Shown here: piece by piece, positions 1,930-56,250 of the stretch | How positions within the stretch are numbered: position 1 is the stretch's first letter | How the letters are laid out: each line of letters begins with the position of its first letter | Assembly: GCA_004297215.1 (NCBI GenBank) | Contig: SCUM01000001.1 | Span: 400 to 64,399 of the forward strand | Length of the DNA: 64,000 nucleotides | DNA from: Patescibacteria group bacterium | GTDB taxonomy: Bacteria; Patescibacteriota; Patescibacteriia; UBA9934; GWF2-40-263 | Direction: 5' to 3' | Position numbers and translations under genes: made by a program | Notes under the pieces: generated by a model | What the model was told of the DNA's origin: nothing | The model's input: only the letters and a program-made list of their open reading frames with translations | Databases searched by the model: none

Positions 1930-4533
1930 ATGAAAAGCTCCCTGATGACTCTGATCGGGCTTTTGTTCCTGTTCGTCGCCGGTTGCGGCGGCTGCGGGAA
2001 CGATCCCCCCGCCGAAGGCGAAGGGGAGGGGGAAGGAGAGGGAGAATGCGGACCTGGTGTGTTTTGCCCCGACGGCTTCGGCTGTCGTGACCACGACGAC
2101 GGCATCGGCCCTCATTGCGAGCCGGTCGTCGGCGAGGGAGAAGGTGAAGGTGAAGGAGAGGGGGAAGGTGAAGGAGAAGGTGAAGGAGAAGGCGAGGGAG
2201 AGGGAGAGCCCCCCTGCGAGCGCAAGATCCTGTTTCCCGACACGGACGACGACGGCTTCGGCGACACGGATGCGTCGGCCGCGGATCTCGTCCTCGACTG
2301 CGAACGGGACGGGTATGCGGACAACGACCGCGACTGCGACGATGACGATCCTGACATCAACCCGGGCGCGCAAGAGGTCTGCGACGCTCTCGACGTTGAC
2401 GAGGACTGCGACGGCATCGGCGACGAGCCGACGGCCGAAGGCACGTCCACGTGGCATCGAAATGCCGACGGCGACCCGTACGGCGATGCGAATGACGTGG
2501 GCGTGAATGCCTGCGATCCGTTGCCGGACAGGTCGACGCTCGACGCGACGGATTGTGACGACGGCAACGTCCTCATCCATCCGGGCGCGCCGGAGCTCTG
2601 CGCCACCGTGGACGTCGATGACGACTGCGATGGCGAGAAAGACGAACCCGGCGCCCCCGACGTGACCACGTGGTTCCCGGACGGTGACGGTGATGCCTAC
2701 GGCGATGATGACGCCCCGGTTTCGGAGCTCGTCGTCGCCTGTCAACGACCGGCCGGTTTCGTGGCCATTCGCGGCGACTGCGACGATGGCGACCGGTTCA
2801 CCCATCCGGAAGCCGCCGAGACCTGCGACCACGTCGACAACGACTGCGACGGCGACGTCGACGAAGGGGTCACCGCGACCCTGTTCGAAGACGCCGACGG
2901 CGACGGCAACGGCAACCCGCTCGCGCCGGTGGAGGCGTGCTGGCCCGGCGGTCCTGGGTTGTCGCGAGACGAACTCGACTGCGACGATACGGATCCGAAT
3001 CTCGACGAGCGCGACCGGGACGGCGACCACGACAGCACCTGTTCGGGCGACTGCGACGACCGGGATCGACTGCGACAATCGCTCGACATGGACCGGGACG
3101 GCGACAGCACCTGCGAAGGGGACTGCGACGACCAAAATCCGCGTCGCGCGCCGGGCAAGCCGGAAATCTGCGAACTCGTGAACGGCGCGGCGTTTGACGA
3201 CGACTGCGACGGGAAGGCCGACGATCTCGACACGGACGGCACGGTACTCGGCCGCACGGTGTTCCTGCGCGACCTCGACCGCGACGGGTATGGCGACAGC
3301 GCCGACGCCCTGCTGCGGTGCGTGAGGCCGGACGGGTATGTGGTCCCGCAGGTCGTGAACGATTGCCGCCCGCTCAACGAGGAGATCCATCCCGGCGCCC
3401 AGGACATCTGCGGCAACGGGAAGGACGAGGATTGCAGCGGCACGGACGCGATCTGTCCGGTCCCGGATGCTGGCCCTGCGGAAGGCGAAGGGGAGGGGGA
3501 AGGCGATGCCGGAACCCCGACGCCTTGCGGCGGAAACTGTGGCCCTGGGACGACGTGCAACGAGGTCACGGGCTTGTGCGAGGTCGCTCCGATTCCGCCC
3601 CCGTGCGACGGGCGTTGCGGACCCGGAACGACCTGCGACGAGGCGACCGACCTGTGCATGCCCGATCCGATCCCTCCGGACGCCGGTTCTCCTGATGCCG
3701 GTCCTGCCGACGCGGGATTCCCCGACGCCGGACCCGCCGAGGGCGAGGGTGAAGGAGAGGGAGAAGGCGAAGGCGATGCCGGTACCGCGCTCCCGTGCGA
3801 CGGGCGTTGCGGGCTCGGGACGACCTGTGACGAGACGACGGATCTGTGCATGCCGAACCCCGTCGACGCCGGACCCGCCGAGGGCGAGGGCGAAGGGGAA
3901 GGTGATGCCGGGACTCCGTCGCCCTGTGGCGGGAACTGCGGACCCGGGACGACCTGCAACGAGTCGACCGACCTGTGCGAGCCCGACGCTTCTCCCGATG
4001 CCGGACCCGGAAGCGGGGAAGGCGAGGGAGAGGGAGAGGGTGAAGGCGAAGGTGAGGGCGATGGCGGGGTGACGGTCGGAATCGAAGCGGACGTGAATGG
4101 ACACCAAAACCTGGTGTGCGCCACGCTCGTCTTCAACCTCGCCTGCCATGACGGCGAGGATGCGTTCATCCTCGCCGAACTCGTGAGCGGAGTCCCCGGA
4201 GCTTTGCCGAACGTGTTGAGTGAAAACCTGCGCGTGTCGCCGCGGCTCTCCGACGGGGCGTACTGCTACGACCCGTCCAGGTTCGGCGGGGACGTGCGGA
4301 TCAGGGACGCCTTGTACGTGAGCGCTTTCGAGCGCGACTCGTGCACGGCACCTGCTCCGGCGGACCTGGCGACGACGCAAGATGCGAGCTACGATTACGT
4401 CGACATGCGCTCAGCGTGCGTGGAAGGCGACCCGCTGTTCGGGACCGCAGACACCGGGATCACGTTCGTGTCGTTCCGCTACTTCGCGAGCACGGATACC
4501 ACGGTGGGCACGAACGACGGCACCTGTCAGTGA
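1930..4533 (+). CDS. Large secreted Cys-rich lipoprotein (paralog 3). It has (GE)n tracts, at least 8 MopE-like repeats and 5 CGGNCGPGTTCxExTxLC repeats, plus the conserved C-terminal domain.
   Basis: Lipobox LLFLFVAGCGGC. Repeats of the form DCDDxDPxINPGAxExCDxxDxDEDCDG. Hexanucleotide (GARGGN)n tracts at 2020-2060, 2130-2215, 3480-3510, 3750-3775, 3880-3905 and 4015-4070. C-terminal YCYDPSRFGGDVRIRD...CTAPAPADLATTQDASYDYVDMRSAC matches the paralogs. Confidence 0.7.
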   Translation: MKSSLMTLIGLLFLFVAGCGGCGNDPPAEGEGEGEGEGECGPGVFCPDGFGCRDHDDGIGPHCEPVVGEGEGEGEGEGEGEGEGEGEGEGEGEPPCERKILFPDTDDDGFGDTDASAADLVLDCERDGYADNDRDCDDDDPDINPGAQEVCDALDVDEDCDGIGDEPTAEGTSTWHRNADGDPYGDANDVGVNACDPLPDRSTLDATDCDDGNVLIHPGAPELCATVDVDDDCDGEKDEPGAPDVTTWFPDGDGDAYGDDDAPVSELVVACQRPAGFVAIRGDCDDGDRFTHPEAAETCDHVDNDCDGDVDEGVTATLFEDADGDGNGNPLAPVEACWPGGPGLSRDELDCDDTDPNLDERDRDGDHDSTCSGDCDDRDRLRQSLDMDRDGDSTCEGDCDDQNPRRAPGKPEICELVNGAAFDDDCDGKADDLDTDGTVLGRTVFLRDLDRDGYGDSADALLRCVRPDGYVVPQVVNDCRPLNEEIHPGAQDICGNGKDEDCSGTDAICPVPDAGPAEGEGEGEGDAGTPTPCGGNCGPGTTCNEVTGLCEVAPIPPPCDGRCGPGTTCDEATDLCMPDPIPPDAGSPDAGPADAGFPDAGPAEGEGEGEGEGEGDAGTALPCDGRCGLGTTCDETTDLCMPNPVDAGPAEGEGEGEGDAGTPSPCGGNCGPGTTCNESTDLCEPDASPDAGPGSGEGEGEGEGEGEGEGDGGVTVGIEADVNGHQNLVCATLVFNLACHDGEDAFILAELVSGVPGALPNVLSENLRVSPRLSDGAYCYDPSRFGGDVRIRDALYVSAFERDSCTAPAPADLATTQDASYDYVDMRSACVEGDPLFGTADTGITFVSFRYFASTDTTVGTNDGTCQ

Positions 4534-4612: not shown

Positions 4613-6145
4613 ATGCGCATTGATTTGCGGGCGGCGTACCGCCTGTCGGAGGAGCATGGAAGGCGTTTGGTGGCCGGGCTGTTCATCGCGCTGGCGTTGC
4701 TTGCGGCCGCGCAGGCCGTGTTTTCGCCTCTCGTCGTCCTGTCGGCCATCCTCTCGGCCGTGTTCGTGGTGATGACGTTCCTGCGCCCGCTGTGGACCGT
4801 GGCGTTCCTGGCGGTGTATCTCCCGTTTGAGCCGTTCCTGCTCAAGTTCATGCCCGAAGAGATCTACCTGTTCGCGCGGTTCTTTTCGGAAGGGCTCATC
4901 TACCTGCTGTGCGCCGTGGTCGCCTGGCGGTCGGTCACCGGGCAGGGGAAGCTGGAACAGACCCCGGCGGGGCTGCCGTTCATGCTGTTCCTGCTGGTGC
5001 TTGCGGCCTCCGTGGCAATCAACGCAGTGGACCCCACCGTGGCTGCGCTGGGCATCCGCCAGATCATCCGGTTCGTGCTGGTGTTCTTCGTCGTCGTGTT
5101 CCTGCGGCCTCCCAAAGGGTTCGCGCTGCGGCTCACGTACGTGATGCTGGGCGTCGTCTTCCTGCAATCCGTGATCGCGCTCACGCAGTCCTTCATCGGC
5201 GAGCCTTTCGACGCGCTCTTGTTGTCGTCCGACGCCCGGACGTTCGGGGACATCACACTCACCGCGGGCGTGGAGCAGTTCTGGGACCCGGGTTCGCGCG
5301 TGTTCGCCACGCTCGGCCGGTACGACCGGCTGGGGAATTTCCTGGCGTTCTTCCTGCCGTTCGGGGTCGCCATGCTCTATGAGCCGGCCTGGCGCAAGGA
5401 GCGCGGCGACCTGTCCTGGCTGTTCGCGCTCGCGCTTCCGGCCCTGGCGCTCACCTATTCCCGCGCCTCCTGGTTCGCCTTCCTGCTCGCGTTCCTGTTC
5501 ATCGCCCTCGTGCTCAGGCGCGACAAGCGCGTGGCGGCGGCGTTCGCGTCCGTGGCGATCGTCGCCGGCCTCTACGTGTTCGCGAGCGGGTTGAACGTGC
5601 GGTTCATCACCGAGGCGCCCGGACAGACGCTAGTGGAACGCTTCTACGAGACGTTCAGCTATGCAAGGTGGCGCGGGGAATACTACGGGCTCGGGCGCGT
5701 GTTCTGGCTCGTGCAGACCCCGCTCACCGTGGTTCCCGCCTCGCCGCTGTTCGGGTTCGGGCCAGGGCAGTACGGCGGGGGAGCCGTGGCCGCGCTGCAT
5801 AACACCGCCGCCTACGACGCGCTCGGCCTGCCGTTCGGCGTGTTCGGGACCGAAGGGGCCATCGACAACAACTGGTTCTCGATGTGGGGCGAGACCGGCA
5901 CCGTCGGCATCGCCCTGTTCTTGTGGATGTACGTCGGCCTGTTCGCCTACGCCGTGCGCATGGCGCGAGCGCATGCGGATCCGCAGGTGCGCGCGCTCGC
6001 GGCAGGCTATGCCGCGGCGCTCGTCGGTTTCGCGCTCATCGGGCTGTTGTCTACCGCGTTCGAGATCCGCACGAACGGATACTATTTTTGGCTGTTCGGC
6101 GGGTTGTTGGTGGCTTTAAATAGGCGTGAAGGCCTTAGGCGATAA
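4613..6145 (+). CDS. Polytopic membrane protein, O-antigen ligase/polymerase (Wzy_C)-like
   Basis: At least 10 predicted TM helices and a periplasmic loop with Wzy_C-like features. It sits at the head of a glycosyltransferase cluster. TAAAAT lies only 6 nt upstream of the ATG, so the transcript may be leaderless. The last codons and the stop are encoded by the GGCCT repeat. Confidence 0.5.
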   Translation: MRIDLRAAYRLSEEHGRRLVAGLFIALALLAAAQAVFSPLVVLSAILSAVFVVMTFLRPLWTVAFLAVYLPFEPFLLKFMPEEIYLFARFFSEGLIYLLCAVVAWRSVTGQGKLEQTPAGLPFMLFLLVLAASVAINAVDPTVAALGIRQIIRFVLVFFVVVFLRPPKGFALRLTYVMLGVVFLQSVIALTQSFIGEPFDALLLSSDARTFGDITLTAGVEQFWDPGSRVFATLGRYDRLGNFLAFFLPFGVAMLYEPAWRKERGDLSWLFALALPALALTYSRASWFAFLLAFLFIALVLRRDKRVAAAFASVAIVAGLYVFASGLNVRFITEAPGQTLVERFYETFSYARWRGEYYGLGRVFWLVQTPLTVVPASPLFGFGPGQYGGGAVAALHNTAAYDALGLPFGVFGTEGAIDNNWFSMWGETGTVGIALFLWMYVGLFAYAVRMARAHADPQVRALAAGYAAALVGFALIGLLSTAFEIRTNGYYFWLFGGLLVALNRREGLRR

Positions 6146-6153
6146 GGCCTTAG
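6121..6153 (+). repeat. Left terminal inverted repeat (aggcgtgaaggccttaggcgataaggccttagg) flanking the four-helix-bundle cassette; member of the GGCCT repeat family
   Basis: The right copy at 6520-6566 is its reverse complement with 1 mismatch over 33 bp. The stop codon of the upstream gene lies inside the repeat. Confidence 0.7.
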
Positions 6154-6159
6154 GATGGT

Positions 6160-6522
6160 ATGGTGAAGACATTCCAAGACTTGATCGTCTGGCAGAAAGC
6201 GATGGTAGTGACTGAAAGGATTTATGCAATTACGAAATCGTTCCCGAAAGATGAGATGTTCGGTCTCACGTCCCAAATGCGCAGAAGCGCGGTTTCCGTC
6301 CCTTCTAATATTGCCGAAGGTAAATTACGGGGTACTCCTGCTGAGTTCAGACGTTTTCTATCCATTGCGTTCGGTTCTTGCGGAGAGCTTCAAACGCAGC
6401 TGTTGTTAGCGGTCCGCATCGGTTATCTTTCTCAATCGCAAGCGCAGGACATACTGAATCACCTCAATGAGGTGCTTCTCATGACCAACGAACTAATCCT
6501 ACGGAATTCACCCCATTCCTGA
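6160..6522 (+). CDS. Four-helix-bundle protein (TIGR02436, 23S rRNA intervening-sequence / S23-ribosomal type)
   Basis: Signature FQDLIVWQKA...LTSQMRRSAVSVPSNIAEG...CGELQTQLLLA. The gene GC is about 45% against about 65% for its surroundings. Confidence 0.8.
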   Translation: MVKTFQDLIVWQKAMVVTERIYAITKSFPKDEMFGLTSQMRRSAVSVPSNIAEGKLRGTPAEFRRFLSIAFGSCGELQTQLLLAVRIGYLSQSQAQDILNHLNEVLLMTNELILRNSPHS

Positions 6523-6566
6523 GGCCTTATCGCCTAAGGCCTTCACGCCTACGGCCTTATCGCCTT
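6520..6566 (+). repeat. Right terminal inverted repeat of the four-helix-bundle cassette, plus an extra acggccttatcgcc unit
   Basis: Reverse complement of 6121-6153. It ends exactly at the ATG of the next gene (6567). Confidence 0.7.
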
Positions 6567-7781
6567 ATGACAGTCCTCCAGGTCAACAAATTCTGGTTCG
6601 CGCGCGGCGGGGCCGAACGATACGCCCTCGATCTTTCCGACTGGTTGTCCGCGCAAGGCCACGCGGTCGTGCCGTTTGCCATGGCGCATCCGGACAACAT
6701 CCCGACGCCCTATGACGGGTTATTCCCTCCGTTTCGCGACACCGAGCATGTCCGCTTCGGCGCGTCCGGCCTGCGCACCTTCCTTAGCATGGGCTGGAAT
6801 CGGGCCGCGCGTCGGGGGATGAAGACGCTGATACGGCAAACGCGGCCGCACGTCGCCCATGTCCACAACATTTACACCCAGCTTTCGCCATCCGTGCTCG
6901 ATGCGCTTTCCAAAGAAAAGGTCCCGTGCGTGTATACGGTCCATGACCATCACCTGGTTTCCCCGTCATACAACCTCTGGGCGGACGGATGCGGACCGAG
7001 CATCGAAGGGAAAGGTGTCGTCGCGGCAACGATGAGCCGATTCCATAAGAAGTCATACGTCGCGTCGTTCGCGCAGGCATTCACCTTTGCCGCACACCGT
7101 CGATCCAAGGCGTATCAGGTCGGCATAGACGCCTATCTTTGTCCGAGCGAATACATGGCCCGTCGCCTCGTTGCGGCCGGGTTCCCGGAGGAAAAGATCC
7201 GCCATCTTCCTCACGGGATCGATCCTGATGCCGTGGCACCGCGGTTCGACCATGACGGATACGTGCTGTTCGTCGGCCGCCTGGTCCCGGAAAAAGGGGT
7301 CGAGACGGTGCTGCGGGTGGCAAGAGTGCTGCCGGAGGTGCGATTCCGCATCGTTGGGACCGGTCCGGACGAGACGCGGCTGCACGTGCTCGCCCATGGC
7401 CTGACGAACGTGGAATTCCTTGGATCCCGATTCGGGGTCGATCTCGACGAACTCTATCGCGGCGCAGCGGCCGTGCTCATTCCTTCGCGCGTGCACGAAG
7501 TGTTCCCGCTCGTCGCCCTCGAGGCGATGCGCGCGGGAAAGCCGGTGGCGGCGAGCCATGTCGGCGGCATGTCCGAAGTGGTGACGGACCGGGTGACCGG
7601 CTTCCTCGTGAACCCGCTCGACATGCACGGATGGGCCGAGGCCGTGCTGCGGATGGTATACGACGACGCGGCCCGCCGCTCGATGGGCCGTGAAGGGCGG
7701 CGCCAGGCGGAAACGACCTTCCATGTCCGGAGGCATAGGGAGAAATTGATGGGGATATACAGGGAGATAGGAAAAACTTGA
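6567..7781 (+). CDS. Glycosyltransferase family 4
   Basis: GT-B fold. C-terminal EVFPLVALEAMRAGKPVAASHVGGMSEVV (E-x7-E motif). Confidence 0.8.
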   Translation: MTVLQVNKFWFARGGAERYALDLSDWLSAQGHAVVPFAMAHPDNIPTPYDGLFPPFRDTEHVRFGASGLRTFLSMGWNRAARRGMKTLIRQTRPHVAHVHNIYTQLSPSVLDALSKEKVPCVYTVHDHHLVSPSYNLWADGCGPSIEGKGVVAATMSRFHKKSYVASFAQAFTFAAHRRSKAYQVGIDAYLCPSEYMARRLVAAGFPEEKIRHLPHGIDPDAVAPRFDHDGYVLFVGRLVPEKGVETVLRVARVLPEVRFRIVGTGPDETRLHVLAHGLTNVEFLGSRFGVDLDELYRGAAAVLIPSRVHEVFPLVALEAMRAGKPVAASHVGGMSEVVTDRVTGFLVNPLDMHGWAEAVLRMVYDDAARRSMGREGRRQAETTFHVRRHREKLMGIYREIGKT

Positions 7782-7915
7782 AACGTGAAAACTTGAAATC
7801 TTGAAAGGGAGAGGAAAAGGCTGGAAGAATGAAAAAGCGAAACGTTTCAAACCGTTTCGCTTTTTCGTCCTTTCACGTGTCCGTTGGTCCTTCAAGTTTT
7901 CACGTTTCAAGTTTT
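7774..7915. terminator. Bidirectional terminator inside a 25-bp perfect palindromic element (AAAACTTGAAACGTGAAAACTTGAA family)
   Basis: Outer arms at 7774-7798 and 7891-7915 are exact reverse complements. The inner hairpin gaaaaagcgaaacg-tttcaaac-cgtttcgctttttc is flanked by an A-run and a T-run. It lies between convergent GT4 genes. Confidence 0.6.
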
Positions 7916-7918
7916 CGT

Positions 7919-9076
7919 TCACGTCGCTTCCTGCCACGTGCGCTCGGCGAGCGCGGCTTCGTACAGGTAGCCAGTGGTGTCCGCGATGTCGCCCCAGTCA
8001 TAGGAACGGGCCACGTACACGCGGGCCTCGCGACCGATCATACGCGCCTCATCGGGGTGCGTGAGGATCCATTCGAGCTTGATGGCGAGATCGCGCGCAT
8101 CGGCACGGCGGAAGACGAGACCGTGCTCCTCGGTGAGCTCGCGGTTTTCCGGGATGTCCGAGGAGAGCACCGCCTTGCCATGCGACATGGCTTCCAGGAT
8201 CGCGAGCGGGAGCCCTTCGGAATCCGACGGATGGACGTTCGCGGCCGCATGGGCGAACAGGGTGGAAAGCTCAATGCCAGAGCGGGGCCCGGTGAGCACG
8301 ATGGAATCATCGTCCTCGCACGAGGCGCGCAGTTCGTCCACATAGCCGTCGGTGAACGCTCCGCCGCCGACGATGGCCAGCTTCCAACCCATCACGATGT
8401 CCGGGCGGCGCTCACGCAGGGCCTTCCAGGCCTCGACGAGCAGGTGGGCTCCCTTGTGGCGCACGAGGCGGGCGCAGAACATGAGGTACTTGCCCGGCAC
8501 GAGATCGAAGGCTTCGAGGAGGGAAACGTCCGTCCATTCCGGAGCGCGGGCGCCGTTTGGCACATACACCGTGTCGGCCGAGTAGGAGAGGCGGCAGTAG
8601 GACTGCAGCGTCTTCGACACCGCGATGGTGGCATCCGGCGCGTAGCAGGACATCCACTCGCCAAGGTGCAGCGCCATGCGGGCGATCAGGTTCCATTTCT
8701 GATGGTGGCGGTCGATGCAGTGGAAGGTGACAAGCACCGCGGCGCGCGGACGCAGGAGCTTGGGGAGCCAGGAAAGAAGGGCCGGGCCGACGCCGTGGAT
8801 GTGGAACACGTCCGCATCCTCGCGCGCGGCGCGCACGATGGCGAGGAAGGCGTGCGTGATGGCGTCCAGGTGCTTGGTGCGGATGGACGGCACGGTGAGA
8901 CAGCGCACGCCGCGATGGGCATACTCACGCTCCTTGCGCCCGGTGTACCAGGAACGGCAAAACACGAGCACCTCGTGCCCGCGCGCGGCGAGCTCAACCG
9001 AGAGCTCTTCCACGTGGCGCTCAATCCCGCCGGAGACGGCGGGAACGCCCTTTTGTCCGATCATCGCGATTTTCAT
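7919..9076 (-). CDS. Glycosyltransferase family 4
   Basis: MKIAMIGQKGVPAVSGGIERHVEELS...EGLPLAILEAMSHGKAVLSSD. Start taken at the internal Met (9076); an in-frame alternative exists at 9115. Confidence 0.8.
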   Translation of the reverse strand: MKIAMIGQKGVPAVSGGIERHVEELSVELAARGHEVLVFCRSWYTGRKEREYAHRGVRCLTVPSIRTKHLDAITHAFLAIVRAAREDADVFHIHGVGPALLSWLPKLLRPRAAVLVTFHCIDRHHQKWNLIARMALHLGEWMSCYAPDATIAVSKTLQSYCRLSYSADTVYVPNGARAPEWTDVSLLEAFDLVPGKYLMFCARLVRHKGAHLLVEAWKALRERRPDIVMGWKLAIVGGGAFTDGYVDELRASCEDDDSIVLTGPRSGIELSTLFAHAAANVHPSDSEGLPLAILEAMSHGKAVLSSDIPENRELTEEHGLVFRRADARDLAIKLEWILTHPDEARMIGREARVYVARSYDWGDIADTTGYLYEAALAERTWQEAT

Positions 9077-9476: not shown

Positions 9477-9485
9477 AAGAATCGG

Positions 9486-9567
9486 GAGGCGATAAGGCCT
9501 CAGGCGTAAAGGCATTAAGGCGTTAAGGGTTTTCCCTCAAGCCTTCTTGCCTAAGGCCTTATCGCCC
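9486..9567. repeat. GGCCT-family element: an inverted pair aggcgataaggcctcagg ... cctaaggccttatcgcc separated by about 45 bp (stem-loop / MITE-like)
   Basis: Direct reverse-complement arms, followed by an AT-rich promoter-like stretch upstream of the ECF sigma gene. Confidence 0.6.
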
Positions 9568-10252: not shown

Positions 10253-11307
10253 CCGAGAAGGACATCGTCAATCTGCTTCATCGAGTAAAAGACGCGCCCG
10301 AACTCGGGGGCGGTTTTGACGATGCGCGCGCCGAGCGGTGCATGAACCGTTTCTGGAACGAGCTCGGCGTCGAGGCTCCGAAGCCGGTTCCCTATGGGCT
10401 GCGCGAATACGCGGATTATGCCCTGTTCGTCCTGTCACATGCCGTCGCGCGTCCGCTCGCCGTCGGTACCTCGGTGTTCGCCCTCATCTTCGGCGGCTGG
10501 GTCACCACGGTGAACGCAAGTTTCTCCAGCCTTCCAGGCGACGTGCTCTACCCAGTGAAGCTTGCCACGGAGCGCATGCAGCTCACGCTCGCAAGCTCCG
10601 GCGTGCGCCGCGCCCGCCTGCATGCGGACTTCGCCTCTCGACGCTTGCAGGAGGTCGGGGAATTGTCCGTCTCCTCCCGCCCGGGCCGCGAGGCCCAGCT
10701 CAAGGCCGCGGTGGAGGGGTTCACCCAGGAGATGGTGTCGGCCAAGGAGCAGCTTGATGCGGTGGGGATCGACAGCCCGTCGGAGGCCGTGGACCTCGCC
10801 CTGGTGCTCGACCAAAAGGCCGATGAGTACCAGGCGCTGCTCACCCAAGGATCTTCCGGAGAGCCGTCGGTCATGCAAGAGGTGGCCGATGCCCAGGCCG
10901 CGGTCGATCAGGTCAATTCCACGGCGGTCGAGACGCTCGTCAACGCGCAAGAGCAGAACGGGGGCGACCCGCGCGTCATCGAAAGGAATTTCCAGTCCCA
11001 GCTCACCTCCGTGCGCAGCCTCATCGCGCTCTCCACGGCGCGGCTCACGGCCATCAAGGAAGCCATCTCCAAGGCCGACGCGCTCGATGCCGATCGCGGG
11101 AGCCGCATCGCGCAGGCGCGCCAGGCGGTCACGAGCCAGGAAAAGCCCATCAGCGAGGCGACCAACGCGTTCGCCGTGGGTGGGTACCGCCGCGCGTTCG
11201 AGGCGCTCGATGCGGTCGAACAGGCGATAGACGGCGTGCAGCCCACCATCCTCGAGCTCGAGCTCTCACTCACGGCTCCCGCACCTGAATCGCCACCCAA
11301 TTTCTAG
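10249..11307 (+). CDS. Putative anti-sigma factor / single-pass membrane protein with an extracytoplasmic coiled-coil domain (DUF5667-like)
   Basis: Translationally coupled to the sigma gene. Cytoplasmic N-terminus, one TM helix (PLAVGTSVFALIFGGWVTTV), then a Gln/Ala-rich helical domain. Confidence 0.4.
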   Translation: MTEKDIVNLLHRVKDAPELGGGFDDARAERCMNRFWNELGVEAPKPVPYGLREYADYALFVLSHAVARPLAVGTSVFALIFGGWVTTVNASFSSLPGDVLYPVKLATERMQLTLASSGVRRARLHADFASRRLQEVGELSVSSRPGREAQLKAAVEGFTQEMVSAKEQLDAVGIDSPSEAVDLALVLDQKADEYQALLTQGSSGEPSVMQEVADAQAAVDQVNSTAVETLVNAQEQNGGDPRVIERNFQSQLTSVRSLIALSTARLTAIKEAISKADALDADRGSRIAQARQAVTSQEKPISEATNAFAVGGYRRAFEALDAVEQAIDGVQPTILELELSLTAPAPESPPNF

Positions 11308-11520
11308 GTCGCTCCGGTCCCGACCGTTGGTCGGGGCCCCGCACCTCTTCCTGTAGGGACAGGGAAGGGTGCGGGGTAGAGAGCCCCGGTCTCTCGCAAT
11401 CCGGACAGATGCCCAAGGTCGAGGTTCCCACAAGGAGCCGCATCCGTTCCAACCTCCAGGCGCGCTAGCGCCGGAGAACACAAAGGTTCGCCCGGCCAAA
11501 AGCCGGGTAAAAATCACGTT
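11308..11520 (+). promoter_or_regulatory. 212-nt structured non-coding leader with at least three GC-rich hairpins ahead of the giant secreted-protein gene
   Basis: Hairpins cccgacc-gtt-ggtcggg, ccgcacctcttcctgt-agg-gacagggaagggtgcgg and cccggc-caaaa-gccggg. Confidence 0.35.
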
Positions 11521-15584: not shown

Positions 15585-16271
15585 ATGCCCCTGCGTCCCA
15601 AACAGCTTCTCGTGATCGTTTCTGCCGCCGTCGTCGTGATCGTGGGCGGGCTTTGGGCGGGGAAGAGCTGGCGCGCGACGCATCCGGCCGCTCCGGCGCT
15701 CCTGGAGCTGGTGGACCGCGGGATCGACGCGGAGAACATGGCCAAGTTTGAGGAGCGCATCGCGGCCCAGGAGGCGGCGGTGGCCGAAGGGGAACGCGAC
15801 ATAAGCGAGCTCCTGGTGTTGGGGAACCTGTATTATTCCGTGGGCGATCTTAAGAAGGCCGCCGCCGCGTACCGTGACATCCTTTCGTCAAACCCCAACG
15901 ACTCGGCGGCGCACGAGAACCTGGCCCAGGCGCTCATCGAGATGGGGGATTACGCGGGAGCGGAGGCGCAGTTGCGCGCGGCGGCCGACGTGAGCGCGTA
16001 CGAGCCCACCTATCTCAAGCTCGCGGACCTCATCGACGAGCATTTCCCGGCGCGCCGGGCGGAGATACAGGTCATCCTCGAAGCGGCCATCGGCAACCTG
16101 GGGCAGACCCCCGGCCTGCTCACCCGCCTGGGCAAGTGGTACGCCGACAACGGCATGCTCAAGGAGGCGATTTCCCACTACGAAGTGGCGCGCCAGCTGG
16201 CCCCCGACGACCAGGCCATCCAGGCGGAAATCGAACGGCTAGAGGCCGAACAACGAAAAAAGGCCAAATGA
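15585..16271 (+). CDS. Membrane-anchored TPR-repeat protein
   Basis: N-terminal TM helix and TPR-like helical repeats (LGNLYYSVGDLKKAAAAYRDILSSNPND...). Confidence 0.6.
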   Translation: MPLRPKQLLVIVSAAVVVIVGGLWAGKSWRATHPAAPALLELVDRGIDAENMAKFEERIAAQEAAVAEGERDISELLVLGNLYYSVGDLKKAAAAYRDILSSNPNDSAAHENLAQALIEMGDYAGAEAQLRAAADVSAYEPTYLKLADLIDEHFPARRAEIQVILEAAIGNLGQTPGLLTRLGKWYADNGMLKEAISHYEVARQLAPDDQAIQAEIERLEAEQRKKAK

Positions 16272-16278
16272 CGCGCCC

Positions 16279-16425
16279 GCAGAGGGCGCGTCATCCTGAA
16301 GGCCATCAGGCCTGAAGGATCTCATGAGCAGAGGGCGCGTCATCCTGAAGGCCATCAGGCCTGAAGGATCTCATGAGCAGAGGGCGCGTCATCCTGAAGG
16401 CCATCAGGCCTGAAGGATCTCGTGT
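16279..16425 (+). repeat. Three tandem direct repeats of a 49-bp unit (gcagagggcgcgtcatcctgaaggccatcaggcctgaaggatctcatga)
   Basis: Units at 16279-16327, 16328-16376 and 16377-16425. Copies 1 and 2 are identical; copy 3 diverges over its last 6 nt. Confidence 0.85.
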
Positions 16426-16426
16426 T

Positions 16427-19344: not shown

Positions 19345-19365
19345 GGTAAAGGAAGGCTGTGCGGC

Positions 19366-19421
19366 CGCAGGCGACAAGGCCTCAAGGGAACATCCTCATG
19401 CCTTCACGCCTGCGGCCTTCA
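19366..19421 (+). repeat. GGCCT-family repeat module ending at the GT2 start codon
   Basis: aggcgacaaggcctcaagggaacatcctcatgccttcacgcctgcggccttca. Confidence 0.65.
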
Positions 19422-20108
19422 ATGCCTATGAAGGTGATCGCGGTCATCCCGGCTTATAATGAAGCGGCTCGTCTCGCCCCGGTGCTTTCACGCGTGAAGG
19501 GGCTTGTCGACGAGGTGGTGGTGGTAGACGACGGATCTTCCGACGACACGTTCGAGGCGGCCAAGACCGCCGGCGTCGTGGCGCTCCGGCATGCCATCAA
19601 TCGCGGACAGGGCGCCGCGCTCAAGACCGGCACGATCTCCGCGCTGTCGCGCGGCGCCGACGTGATCGTGCACGTGGACGGCGACGGCCAGCACGACCCG
19701 GAAGGCATTACGGCGCTCGCGCTCCCCATCGTGCGCGGGGAGGCCGACGTGGTGTACGGCTCGCGATTCCTGGGCATCGCCTCGGAAGGGATGCCCGCGT
19801 CGCGTCGAGCGCTGCTCCTTGCGGGCCGCGTGTTCAGCGCCTTCGCGCTGGGGATCCCGCGCACGTTCACCGATCCGCAGAGCGGGCTGCGCGCCATGAG
19901 TGCCGAGGCGGCGCGGCGCGTGACCTTCACCCAGGACCGCAAGGCGCATTGCTCGGAGCTGCTGCGCGCCGTGTCGCGCTCCGGCCTGCGCGTGATCGAG
20001 GTGCCGACGCGCATCACCTATACGCGAGAGACGCTCGCGAAAGGGAACAAGACCGTCGACGCCTTCCATATCGCCTGGCAGCTGCTGCTCGGAGCATTCC
20101 AAAAGTAA
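19422..20108 (+). CDS. Glycosyltransferase family 2 (dolichyl/polyprenyl-phosphate sugar synthase-like)
   Basis: MKVIAVIPAYNEA...VVVVDDGSSDDT...VDGDGQHDP (DxD motif). Confidence 0.75.
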   Translation: MPMKVIAVIPAYNEAARLAPVLSRVKGLVDEVVVVDDGSSDDTFEAAKTAGVVALRHAINRGQGAALKTGTISALSRGADVIVHVDGDGQHDPEGITALALPIVRGEADVVYGSRFLGIASEGMPASRRALLLAGRVFSAFALGIPRTFTDPQSGLRAMSAEAARRVTFTQDRKAHCSELLRAVSRSGLRVIEVPTRITYTRETLAKGNKTVDAFHIAWQLLLGAFQK

Positions 20109-20117
20109 GACGCGAAT

Positions 20118-20480
20118 ATGCTCGTCATCCAAGTCATCCTTGCCGCGACGCTCCTTGCCGCGCTGGCTCTCACCTGGCGGCGCGCCAGGCAAGGCGCCTT
20201 GAGCCGCCGCGCGGCGATCGTCTGGAGCCTCGTTTGGCTTGGCGCCGCCGTCGTCGTGCTGCGCCCGGAGGTCGCCGACCTGTTCGCGAACGTCGTGGGC
20301 GTGGGTCGCGGGTCGGACGCGGTGCTCTACGTGTCCGTGGTGGCGCTCGCGTACCTCATGTTCCGCCTCTTCCTCCGGTTCGACCGCCTAGAGCGGGATA
20401 TCACGAAATTGGTGAGGAGGATCGCGCTGGATGAGGCGACAAGGCCTCAGGCGGACAAGGCCTCAGGGGAAAATCCTTAA
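20118..20480 (+). CDS. Small membrane protein (DUF2304-like GT2 partner)
   Basis: Two or three TM helices, about 120 aa, typical partner of DPM-synthase-like GT2 genes. The C-terminal tail DEATRPQADKASGENP is encoded by the GGCCT repeat. Confidence 0.5.
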   Translation: MLVIQVILAATLLAALALTWRRARQGALSRRAAIVWSLVWLGAAVVVLRPEVADLFANVVGVGRGSDAVLYVSVVALAYLMFRLFLRFDRLERDITKLVRRIALDEATRPQADKASGENP

Positions 20481-20502
20481 CGCCTTCACGCCTGCGGCCT
20501 TC
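20433..20502 (+). repeat. GGCCT-family repeat module (gaggcgacaaggcctcaggcggacaaggcctcaggggaaaatccttaacgccttcacgcctgcggccttc)
   Basis: It overlaps the 3' end of the upstream CDS and ends at the ATG (20503). About 85% identical to the copy at 21615-21686. Confidence 0.7.
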
Positions 20503-21606
20503 ATGCCCCCCAAGATCGCCGTCATCTACCTTTCTTACAACAGCCTCCCGTACCTTCCGGAGGTCGTTTCATCCTGGGAGAAGCTCGATTACCCGCGCGA
20601 GGCGCTTGAGATCGTGATCGTGGACAACGCGAGCGCCGACGGGAGCGCACAGTGGATCCGCGACCACGTGCTTCCCAAGTCCAACAGCGTGCTCCCGCGC
20701 GTCACGTTTTTCCCGTCGGGAGTGAACCTGGGGTTCGCGGGAGGGAACAACCTCGGCATCGACCACGCACTGCTCGAAGGCGCCGACTACGCGTATCTGC
20801 AGAACAACGATGCCAAACTCGACTCTGGCTGCATCCGCGAGGCCGTGGCGCTTGCGCAGTCCGACGAGAACATCGGTTCCGTCCAGTCGTTCATGCGCCT
20901 GTGGCAGGATCCCGAAGTGGTGAACTCCACCGGAGGCATGGTGCATTTCCTCGGGTTCGGGTTCGTGCGCGACAACGGCCGTTACGCGAAGGACGTGACG
21001 GCGACGGACCCATCGACTTCGCTCAGGGTAGACGGCGAAGAGATCGCCTACGGCAGCGGCGCGGCCACGCTCTACCGCGCCACGGCGCTCAAGGCCGCCG
21101 GGCTGCTCGACGACCATCTGTTCCTGTATCACGAGGATCTCGAGCTCGGTTGGCGCCTCCGGCTCGCCGGGTTCCGCAACGTCCTGTCGATGAAGTCGGT
21201 GGCGTTCCATAGGTACGAATTCTCGCGCAGCGTGCAGAAGCTCTACTGGATGGAGCGCAATCGTTGGTTGGTCCATCTTTCGCACCTGAAGGCTGCGTCG
21301 CTCGCGCTCATCGCGCCGTTCATGCTCGTTGAGGAGCTGGCGCTCGCGGCGTTCGCGATCCATGGAGGGTGGTTTTCGCAAAAGCTCAAGGCGTGGGGCG
21401 CCGCGTTCGACCCGCGCACCTGGGCCTACGTCTCGCGCAAGCGCAAGGAGTCGCGCACGATCCGCAAGGTCACGGACGCCGAGATCGTGCGCCTGTGGAC
21501 GGGCAGGATCGAGCACCAGGCGACGAGCAACCCGATCGTGGAGAAGGTGGCGAATCCGGTGTTGGATGCAATATGGAGGGTCGTGAGGAAATGCATTGTG
21601 TGGTGA
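20503..21606 (+). CDS. Glycosyltransferase family 2 (rhamnosyltransferase/WbbL-like)
   Basis: IAVIYLSYNSLPYLPE...IVIVDNASADGS...YHEDLELGWR. Confidence 0.75.
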   Translation: MPPKIAVIYLSYNSLPYLPEVVSSWEKLDYPREALEIVIVDNASADGSAQWIRDHVLPKSNSVLPRVTFFPSGVNLGFAGGNNLGIDHALLEGADYAYLQNNDAKLDSGCIREAVALAQSDENIGSVQSFMRLWQDPEVVNSTGGMVHFLGFGFVRDNGRYAKDVTATDPSTSLRVDGEEIAYGSGAATLYRATALKAAGLLDDHLFLYHEDLELGWRLRLAGFRNVLSMKSVAFHRYEFSRSVQKLYWMERNRWLVHLSHLKAASLALIAPFMLVEELALAAFAIHGGWFSQKLKAWGAAFDPRTWAYVSRKRKESRTIRKVTDAEIVRLWTGRIEHQATSNPIVEKVANPVLDAIWRVVRKCIVW

Positions 21607-21614
21607 AATAGGGA

Positions 21615-21686
21615 AGAAGGCCTCAGGCGGACAAGGCTTCAGGGGAACATCCTTAACGCCCTTACGCCTGAGGCATTATCGCCTTC
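21615..21686 (+). repeat. GGCCT-family repeat module
   Basis: gaaggcctcaggcggacaaggcttcaggggaacatccttaacgcccttacgcctgaggcattatcgcc; it ends 4 nt before the ATG at 21691. Confidence 0.7.
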
Positions 21687-21690
21687 CAGT

Positions 21691-22815
21691 ATGAAAATCG
21701 CCCAGGTCGTCTCGACGTACCCGCCCTATCGCGGCGGCATGGGGCGCGTCGCCCATGAGTATACCGAGCGTTTGCGCGCCCGGGGCGAGAACGTGCACGT
21801 GTTCACGCCGCGCACGCGCAAGGTGATGAGCGACCCCGAGTACGTGCACCGCGTGCCCTCGCCGCTCACAATCGGCAACGGGAGCGTGATGCCGTCGCTG
21901 TACCAGCGCCTCAAGGGGTTCGACCTGGTGCACCTGCACTACCCGTTCTTCGGCGGGGCCGAGCCGGTGATCGTGCGCAAGGCGATCCGAAGCGACCAGA
22001 AGCTGGTGGTCACCTATCACATGGACGCGGTCGCCGACGGGATCCGCGGCGCCATCTTCCGCGCGCACCGCCGGCTCCTGTTCCCCTGGCTCATCTCCCG
22101 CGCGGACCGCATCCTCGTGTCGAGCCGCGAGTACGCGCTGACCTCCGCGCTCGCCGACGTGCCCGGCTGCCTCGACCGCTTGGAAGTGCATCCGTTCGGG
22201 GTGGATCTCGAGCGGTTTCATCCAGGCGACGAGCCGGAGATGCGCACGCGTCTTGCCCTCGACCCGTCCGTCCCGACGATCCTGTTCGTGGGGGGGCTCG
22301 ACGCCGCGCACCACTTTAAGGGGCTCCCCGTGCTGCTTGCCGCGCTCGAACGCGTGGCCGGCCACCCGTGGACCTGTCTCGTCGTAGGCGACGGCGACCT
22401 GCGGCCGAGCCTGCAAGCCACCGTAGAGGCTGGCGCGCTTGCCGGACGCGTGCGATTCCTCGGGAGCGTGAGCGAGGAAGACCTGCCGCGCATCTACCGC
22501 CTCGCGGACGTCCATGCGTTCCCGTCAACCGAGCGTGCCGAAGCGTTCGGACTCGTCGCGCTCGAGGCATCCGCGAGCGGCGTGCCGACCGTCGCGAGCG
22601 ACCTGCCCGGCGTGCGCACGGTGGTGCTCGACGGGGCTACCGGCCTGCTCGTCCCGCCCGGGGACGCGACAAAACTCGCCGATGCGCTCAAGCTGCTCCT
22701 TGAGCGGACCGACTTGCGCGAGCGCCTGGGAGAAAGCGCCCGCAAGCGCGCCGAGGCCGAATTCGCCTGGGAGCCGCTCATCTCGAGATTGCAGGAAACG
22801 TATAAAAGCTTTTAA
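21691..22815 (+). CDS. Glycosyltransferase family 4
   Basis: MKIAQVVSTYPPYRGGMGRVAHEY...ERAEAFGLVALEASASGVPTVASDLPG. Confidence 0.8.
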   Translation: MKIAQVVSTYPPYRGGMGRVAHEYTERLRARGENVHVFTPRTRKVMSDPEYVHRVPSPLTIGNGSVMPSLYQRLKGFDLVHLHYPFFGGAEPVIVRKAIRSDQKLVVTYHMDAVADGIRGAIFRAHRRLLFPWLISRADRILVSSREYALTSALADVPGCLDRLEVHPFGVDLERFHPGDEPEMRTRLALDPSVPTILFVGGLDAAHHFKGLPVLLAALERVAGHPWTCLVVGDGDLRPSLQATVEAGALAGRVRFLGSVSEEDLPRIYRLADVHAFPSTERAEAFGLVALEASASGVPTVASDLPGVRTVVLDGATGLLVPPGDATKLADALKLLLERTDLRERLGESARKRAEAEFAWEPLISRLQETYKSF

Positions 22816-22816
22816 G

Positions 22817-22900
22817 TAGGCGTAAAGGCCTGAGGCGATAAGGCTTCAGGGGACAAGGCCCCAGCAGCTGAGGCCTTCACGCCTAAGGCCTTCACGCCTT
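22817..22900 (+). repeat. GGCCT-family repeat module with three aggcc/ggcct sub-units
   Basis: taggcgtaaaggcctgaggcgataaggcttcaggggacaaggcc...gaggccttcacgcctaaggccttcacgcctt; it ends 3 nt before the ATG at 22904. Confidence 0.7.
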
Positions 22901-32878: not shown

Positions 32879-32910
32879 TGCCTTGTCCGCCTGAGGCCTT
32901 CTCCGCCTTC
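32874..32910 (-). repeat. GGCCT-family repeat in reverse orientation
   Basis: The reverse complement contains aaggcctcaggcggacaaggc. It ends 2 nt before the HIT ATG. Confidence 0.55.
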
Positions 32911-32912
32911 TT

Positions 32913-33397: not shown

Positions 33398-33402
33398 CCA
33401 CT

Positions 33403-56192: not shown

Positions 56193-56215
56193 ATGGAGAA
56201 GGCGTAAGAATCAGC

Positions 56216-56246: not shown

Positions 56247-56250
56247 AACT

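Follow-up and report, generated by a model that had tools for sequence, protein, structure and literature searches.

A candidate intervening-sequence-type cassette with a four-helix-bundle gene in a protein-coding operon of Uhrbacteria-like Patescibacteria

Positions 6121-6566 of the analyzed window (the whole 64,000-nt stretch of DNA considered here) are probably occupied by an intervening-sequence-type cassette, in which a four-helix-bundle (4HB) gene is nested in a hairpin within an mRNA operon of an Uhrbacteria-like member of the Patescibacteria. The architecture is that of ORF-bearing rRNA intervening sequences (IVSs), seen here in a protein-coding operon. At one conserved junction, alleles that are empty, have a hairpin alone or have a hairpin and a gene form a natural series, in a lineage of which hundreds of relatives are sequenced.

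Anatomy of the element

The element is 446 nt long and lies between two genes of the same orientation. The features distinguished in this region are as follows.

4613..6145, strand +: upstream host gene, Wzy_C/O-antigen-ligase-like membrane protein (PF04932, E 1.7e-8)
6121..6155, strand +: left (5′) arm, the 15-nt unit twice in tandem, AGGCGNNAAGGCCTT, then TAGGA
6160..6522, strand +: intact 4HB ORF of 120 aa, PF05635/TIGR02436 (profile matches)
6517..6551, strand +: right (3′) arm, pairing with the left one at 34/35 positions
6552..6566, strand +: third right-hand unit CGGCCTTATCGCCTT, adjoining the GT4 start codon
6567..7781, strand +: downstream host gene, GT4 glycosyltransferase

A repeat search delimited two arms of 35 nt each (97% complementary, separated by 361 nt), whose sole mismatch, a T opposite G, would be a U-G wobble in RNA. 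The inverted repeat (IR) score at this gene is 32.5, far above the 99th percentile (10-12; median 8) of 688 control ORFs scored in the same way, so chance pairing is excluded. The single-mismatch inverted repeat described in an earlier, sequence-only reading of this DNA is thus real, although the string given there begins at 6122 rather than 6121, a 1-nt offset. The arms are built of tandem 15-nt units (AGGCGNNAAGGCCTN), of which the left side has two and the right side three. That reading had also let the right repeat run to the next ATG; the best arm ends at 6551, and it is the third unit that prolongs the repeat as far as the GT4 ATG at 6567.

As had been noticed, the left repeat provides the stop codon of the upstream gene: the final 8 Wzy codons and the stop TAA (6143-6145) are encoded by the left arm. 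This arm is G-rich and contains a Shine-Dalgarno (SD)-like AGGA (6151-6154) 5 nt ahead of the 4HB start, while the 4HB stop TGA (6520-6522) is overlapped by the right arm. GT4 of the window lacks an SD sequence. MFE and centroid RNA folding alike predict a terminal stem of 37 bp (z = -6.0), and a scan of 5800-6800 for sigma-70 promoters and intrinsic terminators gave nothing above chance. The element has terminal complements, a long stem and an ORF in the loop, as expected of an IVS, and these complements are at the same time terminal inverted repeats (TIRs).

Three other classes of element were considered and rejected. In contrast to an integron gene cassette, which has a single attC at its 3′ end, the arms flank the ORF on both sides and pair mutually, and no integrase is encoded among the neighbours. 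A free-standing homing endonuclease gene is excluded by the lack of a nuclease domain in the 4HB protein, this feature being confined to the DUF559 and GIY-YIG cargos of other lineages. A true 23S rRNA location is excluded as well, since the Rfam gathering scan of the window found no rRNA and the flanks are Wzy-like and GT4 coding genes. A tRNA-Pro was all that the Rfam and tRNA scans detected in the window; rRNA was absent, and the hairpins matched no known RNA family.

The 4HB gene

The predicted product matches PF05635 over residues 6-110 (137.6 bits, cut-off 33.8, E 2.2e-40) and TIGR02436 (126.6 bits, cut-off 24, E 4.5e-37). Both matches are above the curated cut-offs and cover the full domain, which bears out the proposed membership in this family of "23S rRNA intervening sequence proteins". 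The pentameric 4HB protein of PDB entry 2gsc is also matched (E 2.3e-24). No nuclease family was found in the protein by profile searches or PADLOC, and PADLOC returned no defence-system match. More than 7,000 proteins, among 7,343 candidates scored, match the 4HB family at E < 1e-10, and the contexts of homologues comprise R-M/SNF2 operons, positions before lexA, pilin clusters, viral contigs and rRNA.

The GC content of the ORF is 47.7%, compared with 65.9% for Wzy, 62.8% for GT4 and 64.1% for the window; the lower GC reported earlier holds, at a value somewhat above the approximately 45% given then. Codon usage, which had been proposed as a check, differs in the same direction (GC3 of 0.53, versus 0.89 in Wzy and 0.75 in GT4). 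Comparison with the copy of locus L001 gave a pN/pS of 0.148/0.856, and the gene is under purifying selection.

Weak similarity to accessory factors of diversity-generating retroelements (DGRs) was also detected (bAvd PF22296, 27.5 bits; NF033474, 30.9 bits; PHROG 3206 "Avd protein of DGR", E 5e-9), and the element might be imagined as a DGR remnant with the 4HB protein as its Avd factor. This is hardly credible: the PF22296 and NF033474 scores fall under the curated cut-offs (40 and 80 bits) and far from the 137.6 bits of PF05635, the best family, and neither a reverse transcriptase nor a TR/VR pair is located within a few kb, the neighbours being Wzy and GT4.

Comparison of the Wzy-GT4 junction

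Wzy orthologues sharing 46-74% identity were found in 80 loci, and the median Wzy-GT4 gap, calculated for 74 loci, is 11 nt. In the nearest long relatives, L007 and L008 (Wzy 74% identical), the site is empty. Because Wzy and GT4 overlap there (by 23 nt in L007 and as ATGA in L008) with nothing between them, the 4HB element is an insertion relative to these relatives; where the site is empty, GT4 either overlaps Wzy or directly adjoins it. The search for orthologous loci without the insertion, suggested by the sequence-only reading, was therefore successful. The C-terminal tail of Wzy differs between empty and filled sites, with the element substituting about 17 nt of it. The target-site duplication that was also to be looked for is not visible: no direct repeat was found at the boundaries when filled (window, L009) and empty (L007, L008) sites were compared.

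A 4HB gene is present at 6 of about 76 orthologous junctions, i.e. in the window and in L001, L009, L042, L044 and L050. Other junctions carry different cargo, namely DUF559 (L022, L024 and L031) or GIY-YIG (L057), or hairpins without a gene (L040, L045, L077, L084, L033, L085, L053 and L035). At least three unrelated 4HB lineages are represented at the junction (about 75 orthologous junctions); the 4HB proteins of L042 and L050 occupy ranks 116-123 of 123 in the comparison with that of the window. No further copy of a 4HB, DUF559 or GIY-YIG gene was detected by hmmsearch and phmmer in approximately 0.87 Mb of flanking DNA of the compared loci. The window likewise contains no match to DUF559, GIY-YIG, PDDEXK_3, Y1 transposase or RNase III, and the additional 4HB copies that had been thought worth searching for were not found in it by tblastn. 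These distributions indicate that the junction is an insertion hot spot, which could partly reflect its tolerance of insertions and not targeting.

The history of individual copies can be traced in several loci. The Wzy C-terminal regions of L001 and L009 are 95% identical (dN 0.033), whereas their 4HB proteins share just 56% identity (dN 0.37); the two cassettes are non-orthologous. In L001 a left unit of the L009 type lies outside a left arm of the window type. In L101-L103 the cassette is 93-98% identical, including its arms, while the flanks are 70-85% identical, which fits a lateral spread of cassette and arms together. The window 4HB shares 79% aa identity with its only sister, that of L001, and the respective Wzy proteins 84.5%. 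The window copy is thus not recent, being as diverged from its sole sister as the host genes are, and the earlier description of a cassette "caught in place" overstates its recency.

The SD sequence has been lost at occupied junctions, its strength at GT4 starts having a median of -1.7 kcal/mol there, compared with -5.65 kcal/mol otherwise (p = 0.008).

A wholly different view would be that the 4HB protein is an ordinary resident with a role in the polysaccharide operon, the inverted repeat being a regulatory or attenuator structure. The ORF is indeed intact and under purifying selection, co-oriented and tightly packed with its neighbours, and retained at the same place in the sister L001. Yet a 4HB gene occurs at so few of the orthologous junctions, the others having nucleases or nothing, and its GC3 (0.53 against 0.75-0.89 in the neighbours), the unrelated contexts of its homologues, the missing PADLOC match and the lack of a functional link to its neighbours make this explanation very improbable.

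Gene-less hairpins of the same repeat family

The 15-nt unit occurs 16 times in the window, compared with 0.97 occurrences expected. The same units make up at least five hairpins without a gene, located in further spacers of this DNA, and one half element was distinguished in addition.

9484..9566, no strand assigned: gene-less hairpin in the divergent spacer between HTH and sigma-70 genes (z -5.5)
19360..19430, strand +: gene-less intercistronic hairpin (z -4.7)
20430..20506, strand +: gene-less intercistronic hairpin (z -3.7); the upstream ORF continues through its left arm
21610..21690, strand +: gene-less intercistronic hairpin (z -3.4), ending at the following ATG
22815..22900, strand +: gene-less intercistronic hairpin (z -6.3)
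32880..32912, strand +: half element of right-arm-type units alone, adjoining the following ATG, with no stable fold

The hairpin at 22815..22900 is composed of the unit variants AGGCGATAAGGC and AGGCGTGAAGGCC, as are the arms of the 4HB element, and that at 9484..9566 is missing from the orthologous spacer of L007. Among the compared loci, no orthologues above 40% identity were found for the hairpin-flanked genes at 18-24 kb. The 15-nt units in the window thus form multi-copy extragenic palindromes of one sequence family, and the hairpin family to which the 4HB arms belong also has cargo-free members in the same genome. Both the tandem structure of the units and the gene-less hairpins had been overlooked in the sequence-only reading. 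Its view of the arms as terminal inverted repeats specific to the cassette has to be abandoned, and the ordinary REP-like pairs that it named as a refutation are present in part, as gene-less hairpins of the same units. What remains of the mobile cassette proposed there is a genuine insertion, with an intact inverted repeat around the 4HB gene and no transposase, and turnover (empty L007 and L008, non-orthologous cassettes in L001 and L009), and not the private terminal repeats. An exact search for the two-unit arm pattern among 185,579 GTDB representative genomes gave only 5 stray matches in unrelated taxa, which indicates that the repeat is lineage-specific.

It is possible, if doubtful, that the hairpin came first, i.e. 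that a REP/REPIN-like host hairpin, one of many set between cistrons of this genome, was already present at the Wzy-GT4 junction when the 4HB ORF, by itself, landed in its loop. The repeats would then be the target and lie outside the mobile unit, by the same logic as for IVSs at the tips of rRNA helices. Such an order of events would agree with the gene-less hairpins made of the same units in the other spacers and with those at the same junction in the loci named above, with the AGTAGCA-type units common to L045 (no gene) and L050 (4HB), and with the nesting of the window-type cassette of L001 in an L009-type left arm. REPs are documented insertion targets of IS elements (PMC3184786), which also speaks for a hairpin as target. 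However, window-type arms accompanied the window-type 4HB gene in L001, the high-identity block of L101-L103 takes in the arms and, in other loci, arm units occur within +/-6 kb only beside a cargo gene. This explanation overlaps with the preferred one, of an IVS-type cassette, and the sole difference between them is what moves.

Long terminal IRs, filled and empty sites, and several short derivatives with common ends are also features of a classical non-autonomous TIR transposon, i.e. a MITE with cargo, for which a transposase gene in another part of the genome would provide mobility in trans. Its internally deleted MITE derivatives would then be the gene-less hairpins; the absence of the 9484-9566 hairpin from the L007 spacer and the RAYT-like Y1 transposase flanked by GTAG-REPs in L067 (also found in L092 and L066) are consistent with this. 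Nevertheless, we regard a MITE as unlikely: no target-site duplication was found, and the arms consist of variable numbers of tandem units (two versus three) instead of defined ends, their sequences being wholly different between lineages while the architecture is constant. Moreover, as the earlier reading had stated, no transposase of any kind is adjacent to the element, nor is a Y1_Tnp gene encoded anywhere in the 64-kb window, and the steady G-rich-upstream polarity relative to the ORF is unexpected for TIRs acting at the DNA level.

Inverted repeats around other 4HB genes

All six 4HB genes of the Wzy-GT4 junction are bracketed by IRs of 19-59 nt, whose sequences differ; methyltransferase controls have none. 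Among 25 different 4HB genes whose contigs are unrelated, 21 gave an IR score above the control 99th percentile of 10-12 (MWU p = 1.7e-9), and the IR is missing at the remaining four, as well as at L090 and L094. In L129, L130 and L131 the 4HB gene is located between two complete hairpins and not inside one. In the upstream arm, G outnumbers C in 20/23 cases (p = 5e-4). Tandem-unit hairpin arms, usually G-rich upstream of the ORF, are therefore a family-wide hallmark of 4HB genes. In the openly accessible literature, we found no account of hairpin-flanked 4HB genes outside rRNA.

The stem of L001 is degraded (26/31 paired). Comparison of the window stem with that of L001 revealed one clearly compensatory change and several disruptive ones, and so gives no support for selection on pairing.

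Proposed mechanism

We propose that a small, functional 4HB gene occupies the loop of a long hairpin. This IVS-type cassette would have been inserted where the co-transcribed Wzy-like and GT4 genes formerly overlapped. The element would be transcribed as part of the operon, and its arms would pair in the transcript to form a dsRNA stem of about 37 bp. By analogy with the ORF-bearing 23S rRNA IVSs this stem may be a substrate of RNase III (the 64-kb window contains no rnc gene), or else it may serve as a splint that places the Wzy stop beside the GT4 start. In either case the insert would be neutralized at the RNA level, and the flanking cistrons could still be expressed despite the loss of the GT4 SD sequence. 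The purine-rich left arm presumably gives stop codons to the upstream gene and a ribosome-binding site to the 4HB gene. Movement at the DNA level is not self-encoded. Lateral spread with the arms may occur by recombination or by hairpin-targeted insertion, possibly helped in trans; genes for RAYT-like Y1 transposases accompanied by GTAG-REPs are available in the related loci L067, L092 and L066.

Several points become testable at this junction: RNase III processing, downstream expression without a ribosome-binding site, and whether the arms travel along with the gene or serve as its target. The alternative cargos point to a link between 4HB and small nuclease genes at the same sites. More tentatively, we hypothesize that 4HB and small PD-(D/E)xK (DUF559, PDDEXK_3) and GIY-YIG genes might all be cargo of an undescribed class of hairpin-nested cassettes, which colonize the loops of rRNA helices and intercistronic hairpins and are tolerated because their tandem-unit stems are removed or bridged at the RNA level. 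If this is true, such cassettes amount to "introns" of bacterial operons that are protein-free and spliceless. The pentameric 4HB protein might also bind tandem-unit stems within the hairpin family to which it belongs, of which this genome has at least five gene-less members. For annotation, we suggest tandem-unit IRs with a G-rich upstream side as a rule to flag the very large, uncharacterized 4HB family.

Comparison with known systems

ORF-bearing rRNA IVSs have been known since the 1990s. The IVS of Coxiella burnetii is 444 nt long and carries the S23p ORF in its loop; its terminal stem of 28 bp, interrupted by one mismatch and a bulge, is cleaved internally by RNase III, which excises the IVS; its GC content is under the genome level, and IVSs of this type are sporadic, with evidence of horizontal acquisition and without a mobility gene (PMC4990558). 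In CPR bacteria, 23S_rRNA_IVP ORFs are found at scattered insertion sites in rRNA, alongside homing endonucleases (PMC11270868). The window element resembles the 23S IVSs of Coxiella and Leptospira in size (446 versus 444 nt), in the PF05635 cargo located in the loop of a long stem (35-37 bp here, 28 bp in Coxiella), and in its lower GC than the host, sporadic distribution, signs of horizontal acquisition and lack of a mobility gene. It differs in that the host is the transcript of a protein-coding operon and not 23S rRNA, the stem replaces a translationally coupled gene overlap and not the tip of an rRNA helix, and the arms are tandem short units, also found in gene-less hairpins.

With REP/REPIN-RAYT systems and BIMEs the element shares multi-copy palindromes of lineage-specific sequence, placed exactly between operon stops and starts; in related Uhrbacteria loci GTAG-REPs surround a RAYT-like gene, and this very junction is occupied by a REPIN in L053. 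However, its tandem 15-nt units lack a GTAG head, its "spacer" contains a 363-bp ORF, and no RAYT is encoded in the window.

The Correia elements of Neisseria are co-transcribed MITEs whose hairpins are targeted by RNase III, and the palindromic elements of Rickettsia lengthen ORFs. They similarly have terminal IRs, filled and empty sites and insertions in transcribed regions. The window element also supplies the 3′ end of a host ORF, and repeat elements that lengthen protein genes at their 3′ ends are documented (PMC3184786). In contrast to these elements, the one described here shows no target-site duplication, carries a conserved protein gene and has an arm sequence that differs from host to host.

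Free-standing homing endonuclease genes, such as seg/mob of phage T4, are likewise small selfish ORFs lodged between strongly conserved genes, and the resemblance extends to the alternative cargo at the junction (GIY-YIG and a Vsr-like DUF559 nuclease) and to a cassette more conserved than its flanks (L101-L103). They differ from the window element in that the 4HB protein has no nuclease domain and hairpin arms are not a feature of homing endonuclease genes.

Finally, cyanobacterial STRR heptamer repeats were reportedly found by Vioque in 1997 (cited in PMC2858038) inside structured RNA genes. Like the window arms they are short tandem units that lengthen an RNA helix, inserted at helix tips, although no ORF cargo is described for them and they belong to another phylum; a relationship between the two is conjectural.

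Structure of the 4HB element

The four-helix-bundle (4HB) gene lies between a gene encoding a Wzy-like membrane protein (4613-6145; locus tag EPO34_00040, with orthologues annotated as Candidatus Uhrbacteria) and a GT4 glycosyltransferase gene (6567-7781).

6121-6155, left arm, paired with the right arm at 34 of 35 positions
6160-6522, + strand, 4HB ORF of 120 aa, bracketed by the arms
6517-6551, right arm, paired with the left arm at 34 of 35 positions

The inverted repeat (IR) reported around this gene in the sequence-only reading is thus present, with coordinates shifted by one base. Its sole mismatch, a T opposite a G, becomes a wobble pair in RNA. The IR score of the element is 32.5; 688 control ORFs put through the same scoring have a median of 8, with the 99th percentile at 10-12. 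This excludes chance and confirms the basic observation of a 4HB ORF inside an inverted repeat. As had been proposed, the left arm holds the stop codon of the upstream gene (TAA, 6143-6145); the right arm contains the 4HB stop codon (TGA, 6520-6522). The right repeat had been described as ending at the next ATG, but the paired arm stops at 6551 and it is a third repeat unit (6552-6566) that reaches the GT4 start codon. The low GC content of the gene also held, at 47.7% (GC3 0.53) rather than about 45%, below the Wzy-like (65.9%, GC3 0.89) and GT4 (62.8%, GC3 0.75) genes.

The encoded protein is a bona fide member of the TIGR02436/PF05635 family, scoring far above the cut-offs of both models (126.6 and 137.6 bits, respectively) and matching the pentameric four-helix-bundle structure PDB 2gsc (E 2e-24). 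Its identification as a DGR Avd protein was rejected, because the scores were below the cut-offs and no RT was present. Comparison with the copy at the related junction L001 revealed purifying selection (pN/pS 0.148/0.856).

Empty and occupied Wzy-GT4 junctions

Looking up gene contexts and scanning metagenomes with a Wzy alignment gave more than 80 orthologous loci (L-numbers denote retrieved loci). Both genes could be located in 74 of them, with a median gap of 11 nt between Wzy and GT4. The closest long relatives are empty: L007 (Uhrbacteria RIFCSPHIGHO2_01_FULL_63_20; Wzy 74% identical) has a 23-nt overlap of the two genes, and L008 an ATGA overlap. Judged by this comparison, the window element is an insertion relative to its relatives. 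At filled sites the left arm begins directly after the conserved '...LVALN-R' codons of Wzy, replacing the last 6-7 codons; no target-site duplication, a check proposed with the sequence-only reading, is visible against the empty L007 and L008. Upstream of the Wzy-like gene, an 867-aa ORF (1930-4533) contains extended (GE)n stretches and numerous repeats rich in Asp and Cys. Many metagenome contigs start near it, possibly as a result of assemblies breaking at these repeats.

Contents of occupied Wzy-GT4 junctions
PF05635 gene: window, L001, L009, L042, L044, L050
DUF559 (Vsr-like) nuclease gene: L022, L024, L031
Small GIY-YIG gene: L057
Ordinary methyltransferase gene: L051, L066, L074
Gene-less hairpin of 100-230 nt: L019, L033, L035, L040, L045, L053, L077, L084, L085

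This junction is a hot spot whose cargo varies between loci. No 4HB, DUF559 or GIY-YIG gene was found away from it when all ORFs of at least 60 aa in about 0.87 Mb of loci were searched with hmmsearch and phmmer. By our calculation, the location of all eight independent cargo genes at the junction has p ~3e-9 under a uniform model in which it represents about 8% of gene boundaries. Highly conserved flanks, as in rRNA, may be the cause, allowing recombinational spread among relatives.

Several comparisons indicate that the junction 4HB genes do not descend vertically from a single gene. At least 115 homologues of other phyla are closer to the window protein than those of L042 and L050 are. L001 and L009 have Wzy C-terminal regions that are 95% identical (dN 0.033) and 4HB proteins that are only 56% identical (dN 0.37), while the L001 and window 4HB proteins share 79% identity. 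The Wzy tree places L008, which is empty, next to L001 and L009.

Inverted repeats of 4HB genes

All six junction 4HB genes lie inside IRs of 19-59 nt abutting the ORF. The IR sequences are unrelated between lineages, and all are composed of short tandem units, e.g. AGTAGCAG, AGAGTGNN, GGCTTAAGG and GGCCCGCA. The same analysis found no bracketing IR around the junction methyltransferase genes. Inverted repeats are a hallmark of the 4HB family: 21 of 25 distinct 4HB genes exceeded the control 99th percentile (MWU p = 1.7e-9; 33 unrelated viral-collection contigs). Further bracketed examples are found at L092 and L095; the genes of L090 and L094 have no IR, and in L129, L130 and L131 the 4HB gene lies between two complete hairpins, not inside one. 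In the non-CPR loci L094 (3001-3423) and L095 (3001-3366) the gene is wedged into restriction-modification or SNF2-helicase operons (N6_N4_Mtase-4HB-HATPase; SNF2-4HB-DUF4391), with AGTGGCGAG-type units upstream in both despite the different organisms.

In 20 of 23 cases G outnumbers C in the arm upstream of the ORF (p = 5e-4), and 18 of the 23 upstream arms are rich in purines. Transposon ends acting at the DNA level would not be expected to show such a polarity relative to transcription. The polarity is consistent with a role at the RNA level or in translation, given the many stop codons and Shine-Dalgarno (SD)-like motifs in upstream arms.

Similar brackets surround DUF559 (L022, 42 nt), GIY-YIG (L057) and PDDEXK_3 (L033) genes. 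The last, a PF13366 PD-(D/E)xK ORF (11133-11438, minus strand) within a 38-nt IR of ACGAAACT-type tandem units (11103-11527), represents a fourth small-gene family with an IR bracket.

Gene-less hairpins and models of movement

Tandem copies of the 15-nt unit AGGCGNNAAGGCCTN make up the arms, two on the left side and three on the right side. The window holds 16 occurrences of this unit (0.97 expected). Five spacers besides that of the 4HB element contain stable gene-less hairpins built of units of its family (RNA-fold z-scores -3.4 to -6.3), and most of these hairpins fill stop-to-ATG gaps of a co-directional glycosyltransferase operon. Two further tandem-unit families were distinguished.

9484-9566, gene-less hairpin, AGGCGNNAAGGCCTN family
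19360-19430, gene-less hairpin, AGGCGNNAAGGCCTN family
20430-20506, gene-less hairpin, AGGCGNNAAGGCCTN family
21610-21690, gene-less hairpin, AGGCGNNAAGGCCTN family
22815-22900, gene-less hairpin, AGGCGNNAAGGCCTN family
~32880, half element, AGGCGNNAAGGCCTN family
18220-18319, hairpin, TGTAGGA/TGAAGGA heptamers
24099-24202, hairpin, TGTAGGA/TGAAGGA heptamers
33334-33395, hairpin, CGTAGTG/CGTAGGA units containing GTAG
34363-34431, hairpin, CGTAGTG/CGTAGGA units containing GTAG

The repeats had been taken as terminal repeats of the cassette; as gene-less hairpins share their unit, they are not transposon ends exclusive to it.

The heptamer hairpins (arms 29-30 nt, 83-90% complementary) occupy intergenic spacers of the polysaccharide gene region. 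The third family lies on either side of a dTDP-glucose-dehydratase-like gene (33349-34371), an ordinary gene that nevertheless looks IR-bracketed. The 137-nt spacer between convergent GT4 genes (7781-7919) folds into one long palindrome (-54 kcal/mol); the orthologous L007 spacer has 11 nt. In the spacer at 16271-16440, before the S8 peptidase gene, a 49-nt motif containing CATCCTGAAGGCCATCAGGCCTGAAGGATCTC occurs three times in tandem. It is single-copy in the closest relative (L007 12028-12098), so a small conserved hairpin has expanded locally. In L040 the GT4 orthologue has a hairpin on each side (4853-4949 and 6218-6312; IR score 64), the two being nearly identical, about 95 nt long and made up of AGGTGGNN units, an example of successive cistrons punctuated by hairpins.

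Two models of movement are suggested. In the first, arms and ORF travel as one unit, as L001 and L101-L103 would illustrate. In the left flank of L001 the L009-type unit GGCCCGCAGGCCCGCAGG precedes a window-type left arm, which suggests a window-type cassette with arms nested in, or replacing, an L009-type one; the contig ends within the right flank. L101-L103 (around 2400-2870) show 93-98% identity over the cassette and its arms and 70-85% over the flanking DNA, which suggests that the cassette has recently spread laterally to one locus of diverged genomes. No such excess is seen for the window copy, its divergence from L001 equalling that of the host genes. In the second model a hairpin is there first and the ORF inserts into its loop; this is suggested by the gene-less hairpins built of arm units, the comparison of L045 (gene-less hairpin) with L050 (4HB gene) and, by analogy, rRNA helix tips. 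Both models may apply. The 'mobile cassette' first proposed is supported in part and calls for refinement: the insertion is borne out, cassette-specific terminal repeats are not.

The absence of a transposase was borne out: none is present at the element, and no Y1 transposase was found within the 64-kb window. RAYT-like Y1 transposases flanked by GTAG-REPs occur in the related Uhrbacteria loci L067, L092 and L066. The L067 ORF (Y1_Tnp, IS200/RAYT-like; 5995-6614) lies between inverted GTAGCCGCAGGCTTTAGCCTGCG REPs; a matching doublet, a classical REPIN, fills the L053 junction (1872-1954), and a single REP that of L067.

Proposed action at the RNA level

RNA folding of the 446-nt element predicted a 37-bp terminal stem in both MFE and centroid structures (z = -6). 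Scanning detected no sigma-70 promoter or intrinsic terminator within the element, which is therefore most simply assumed to be transcribed together with the operon. The 23S rRNA intervening sequence (IVS) of Coxiella has 444 nt, a 28-bp stem with one mismatch and a bulge, an S23p ORF in the loop and GC content below that of the genome, and RNase III cuts within its stem (PMC4990558). In CPR bacteria, insertion sites in rRNA also harbour 23S_rRNA_IVP ORFs, beside homing endonucleases (PMC11270868). From the match in architecture with the ORF-bearing Coxiella IVS we infer that both arms would pair in the operon transcript. RNase III would then cleave the stem, or the stem would keep the Wzy stop close to the GT4 start; in both cases the insert would be functionally removed. 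No RNase III gene was found within the 64-kb window.

The GT4 SD is lost at occupied junctions (median anti-SD duplex -1.7 vs -5.65 kcal/mol at empty sites, p = 0.008). All five scorable 4HB-occupied junctions are essentially SD-less, and a C/T-rich right arm abuts the GT4 ATG in them; L001 was left out because its contig ends before the GT4 start. This loss would fit functional removal of the insert at the RNA level.

Relation to known systems

The element differs from rRNA IVSs in location and agrees with them in those structural features tested. It resembles MITEs and free-standing homing-endonuclease genes in single respects and lacks at least one defining feature of each; its likeness to REPINs is likewise confined to single respects. 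We classed it as an IVS-type element in an mRNA operon. In the searchable literature, which excludes subscription journals, no description was found of hairpin-nested 4HB genes outside rRNA, of tandem-unit arms, or of alternating 4HB/DUF559/GIY-YIG cargo.

Another low-GC island (56200-59410; 48-50% vs 64% for the window) directly follows a ribonucleotide-reductase-like gene. Its ORFs are one for a C5 cytosine DNA methyltransferase-like protein (56906-58327; motif GGPPCQSFS), an overlapping one of 363 aa (58317-59408) and one of 95 aa (56251-56538), and the island resembles a type II restriction-modification unit gained by horizontal transfer.
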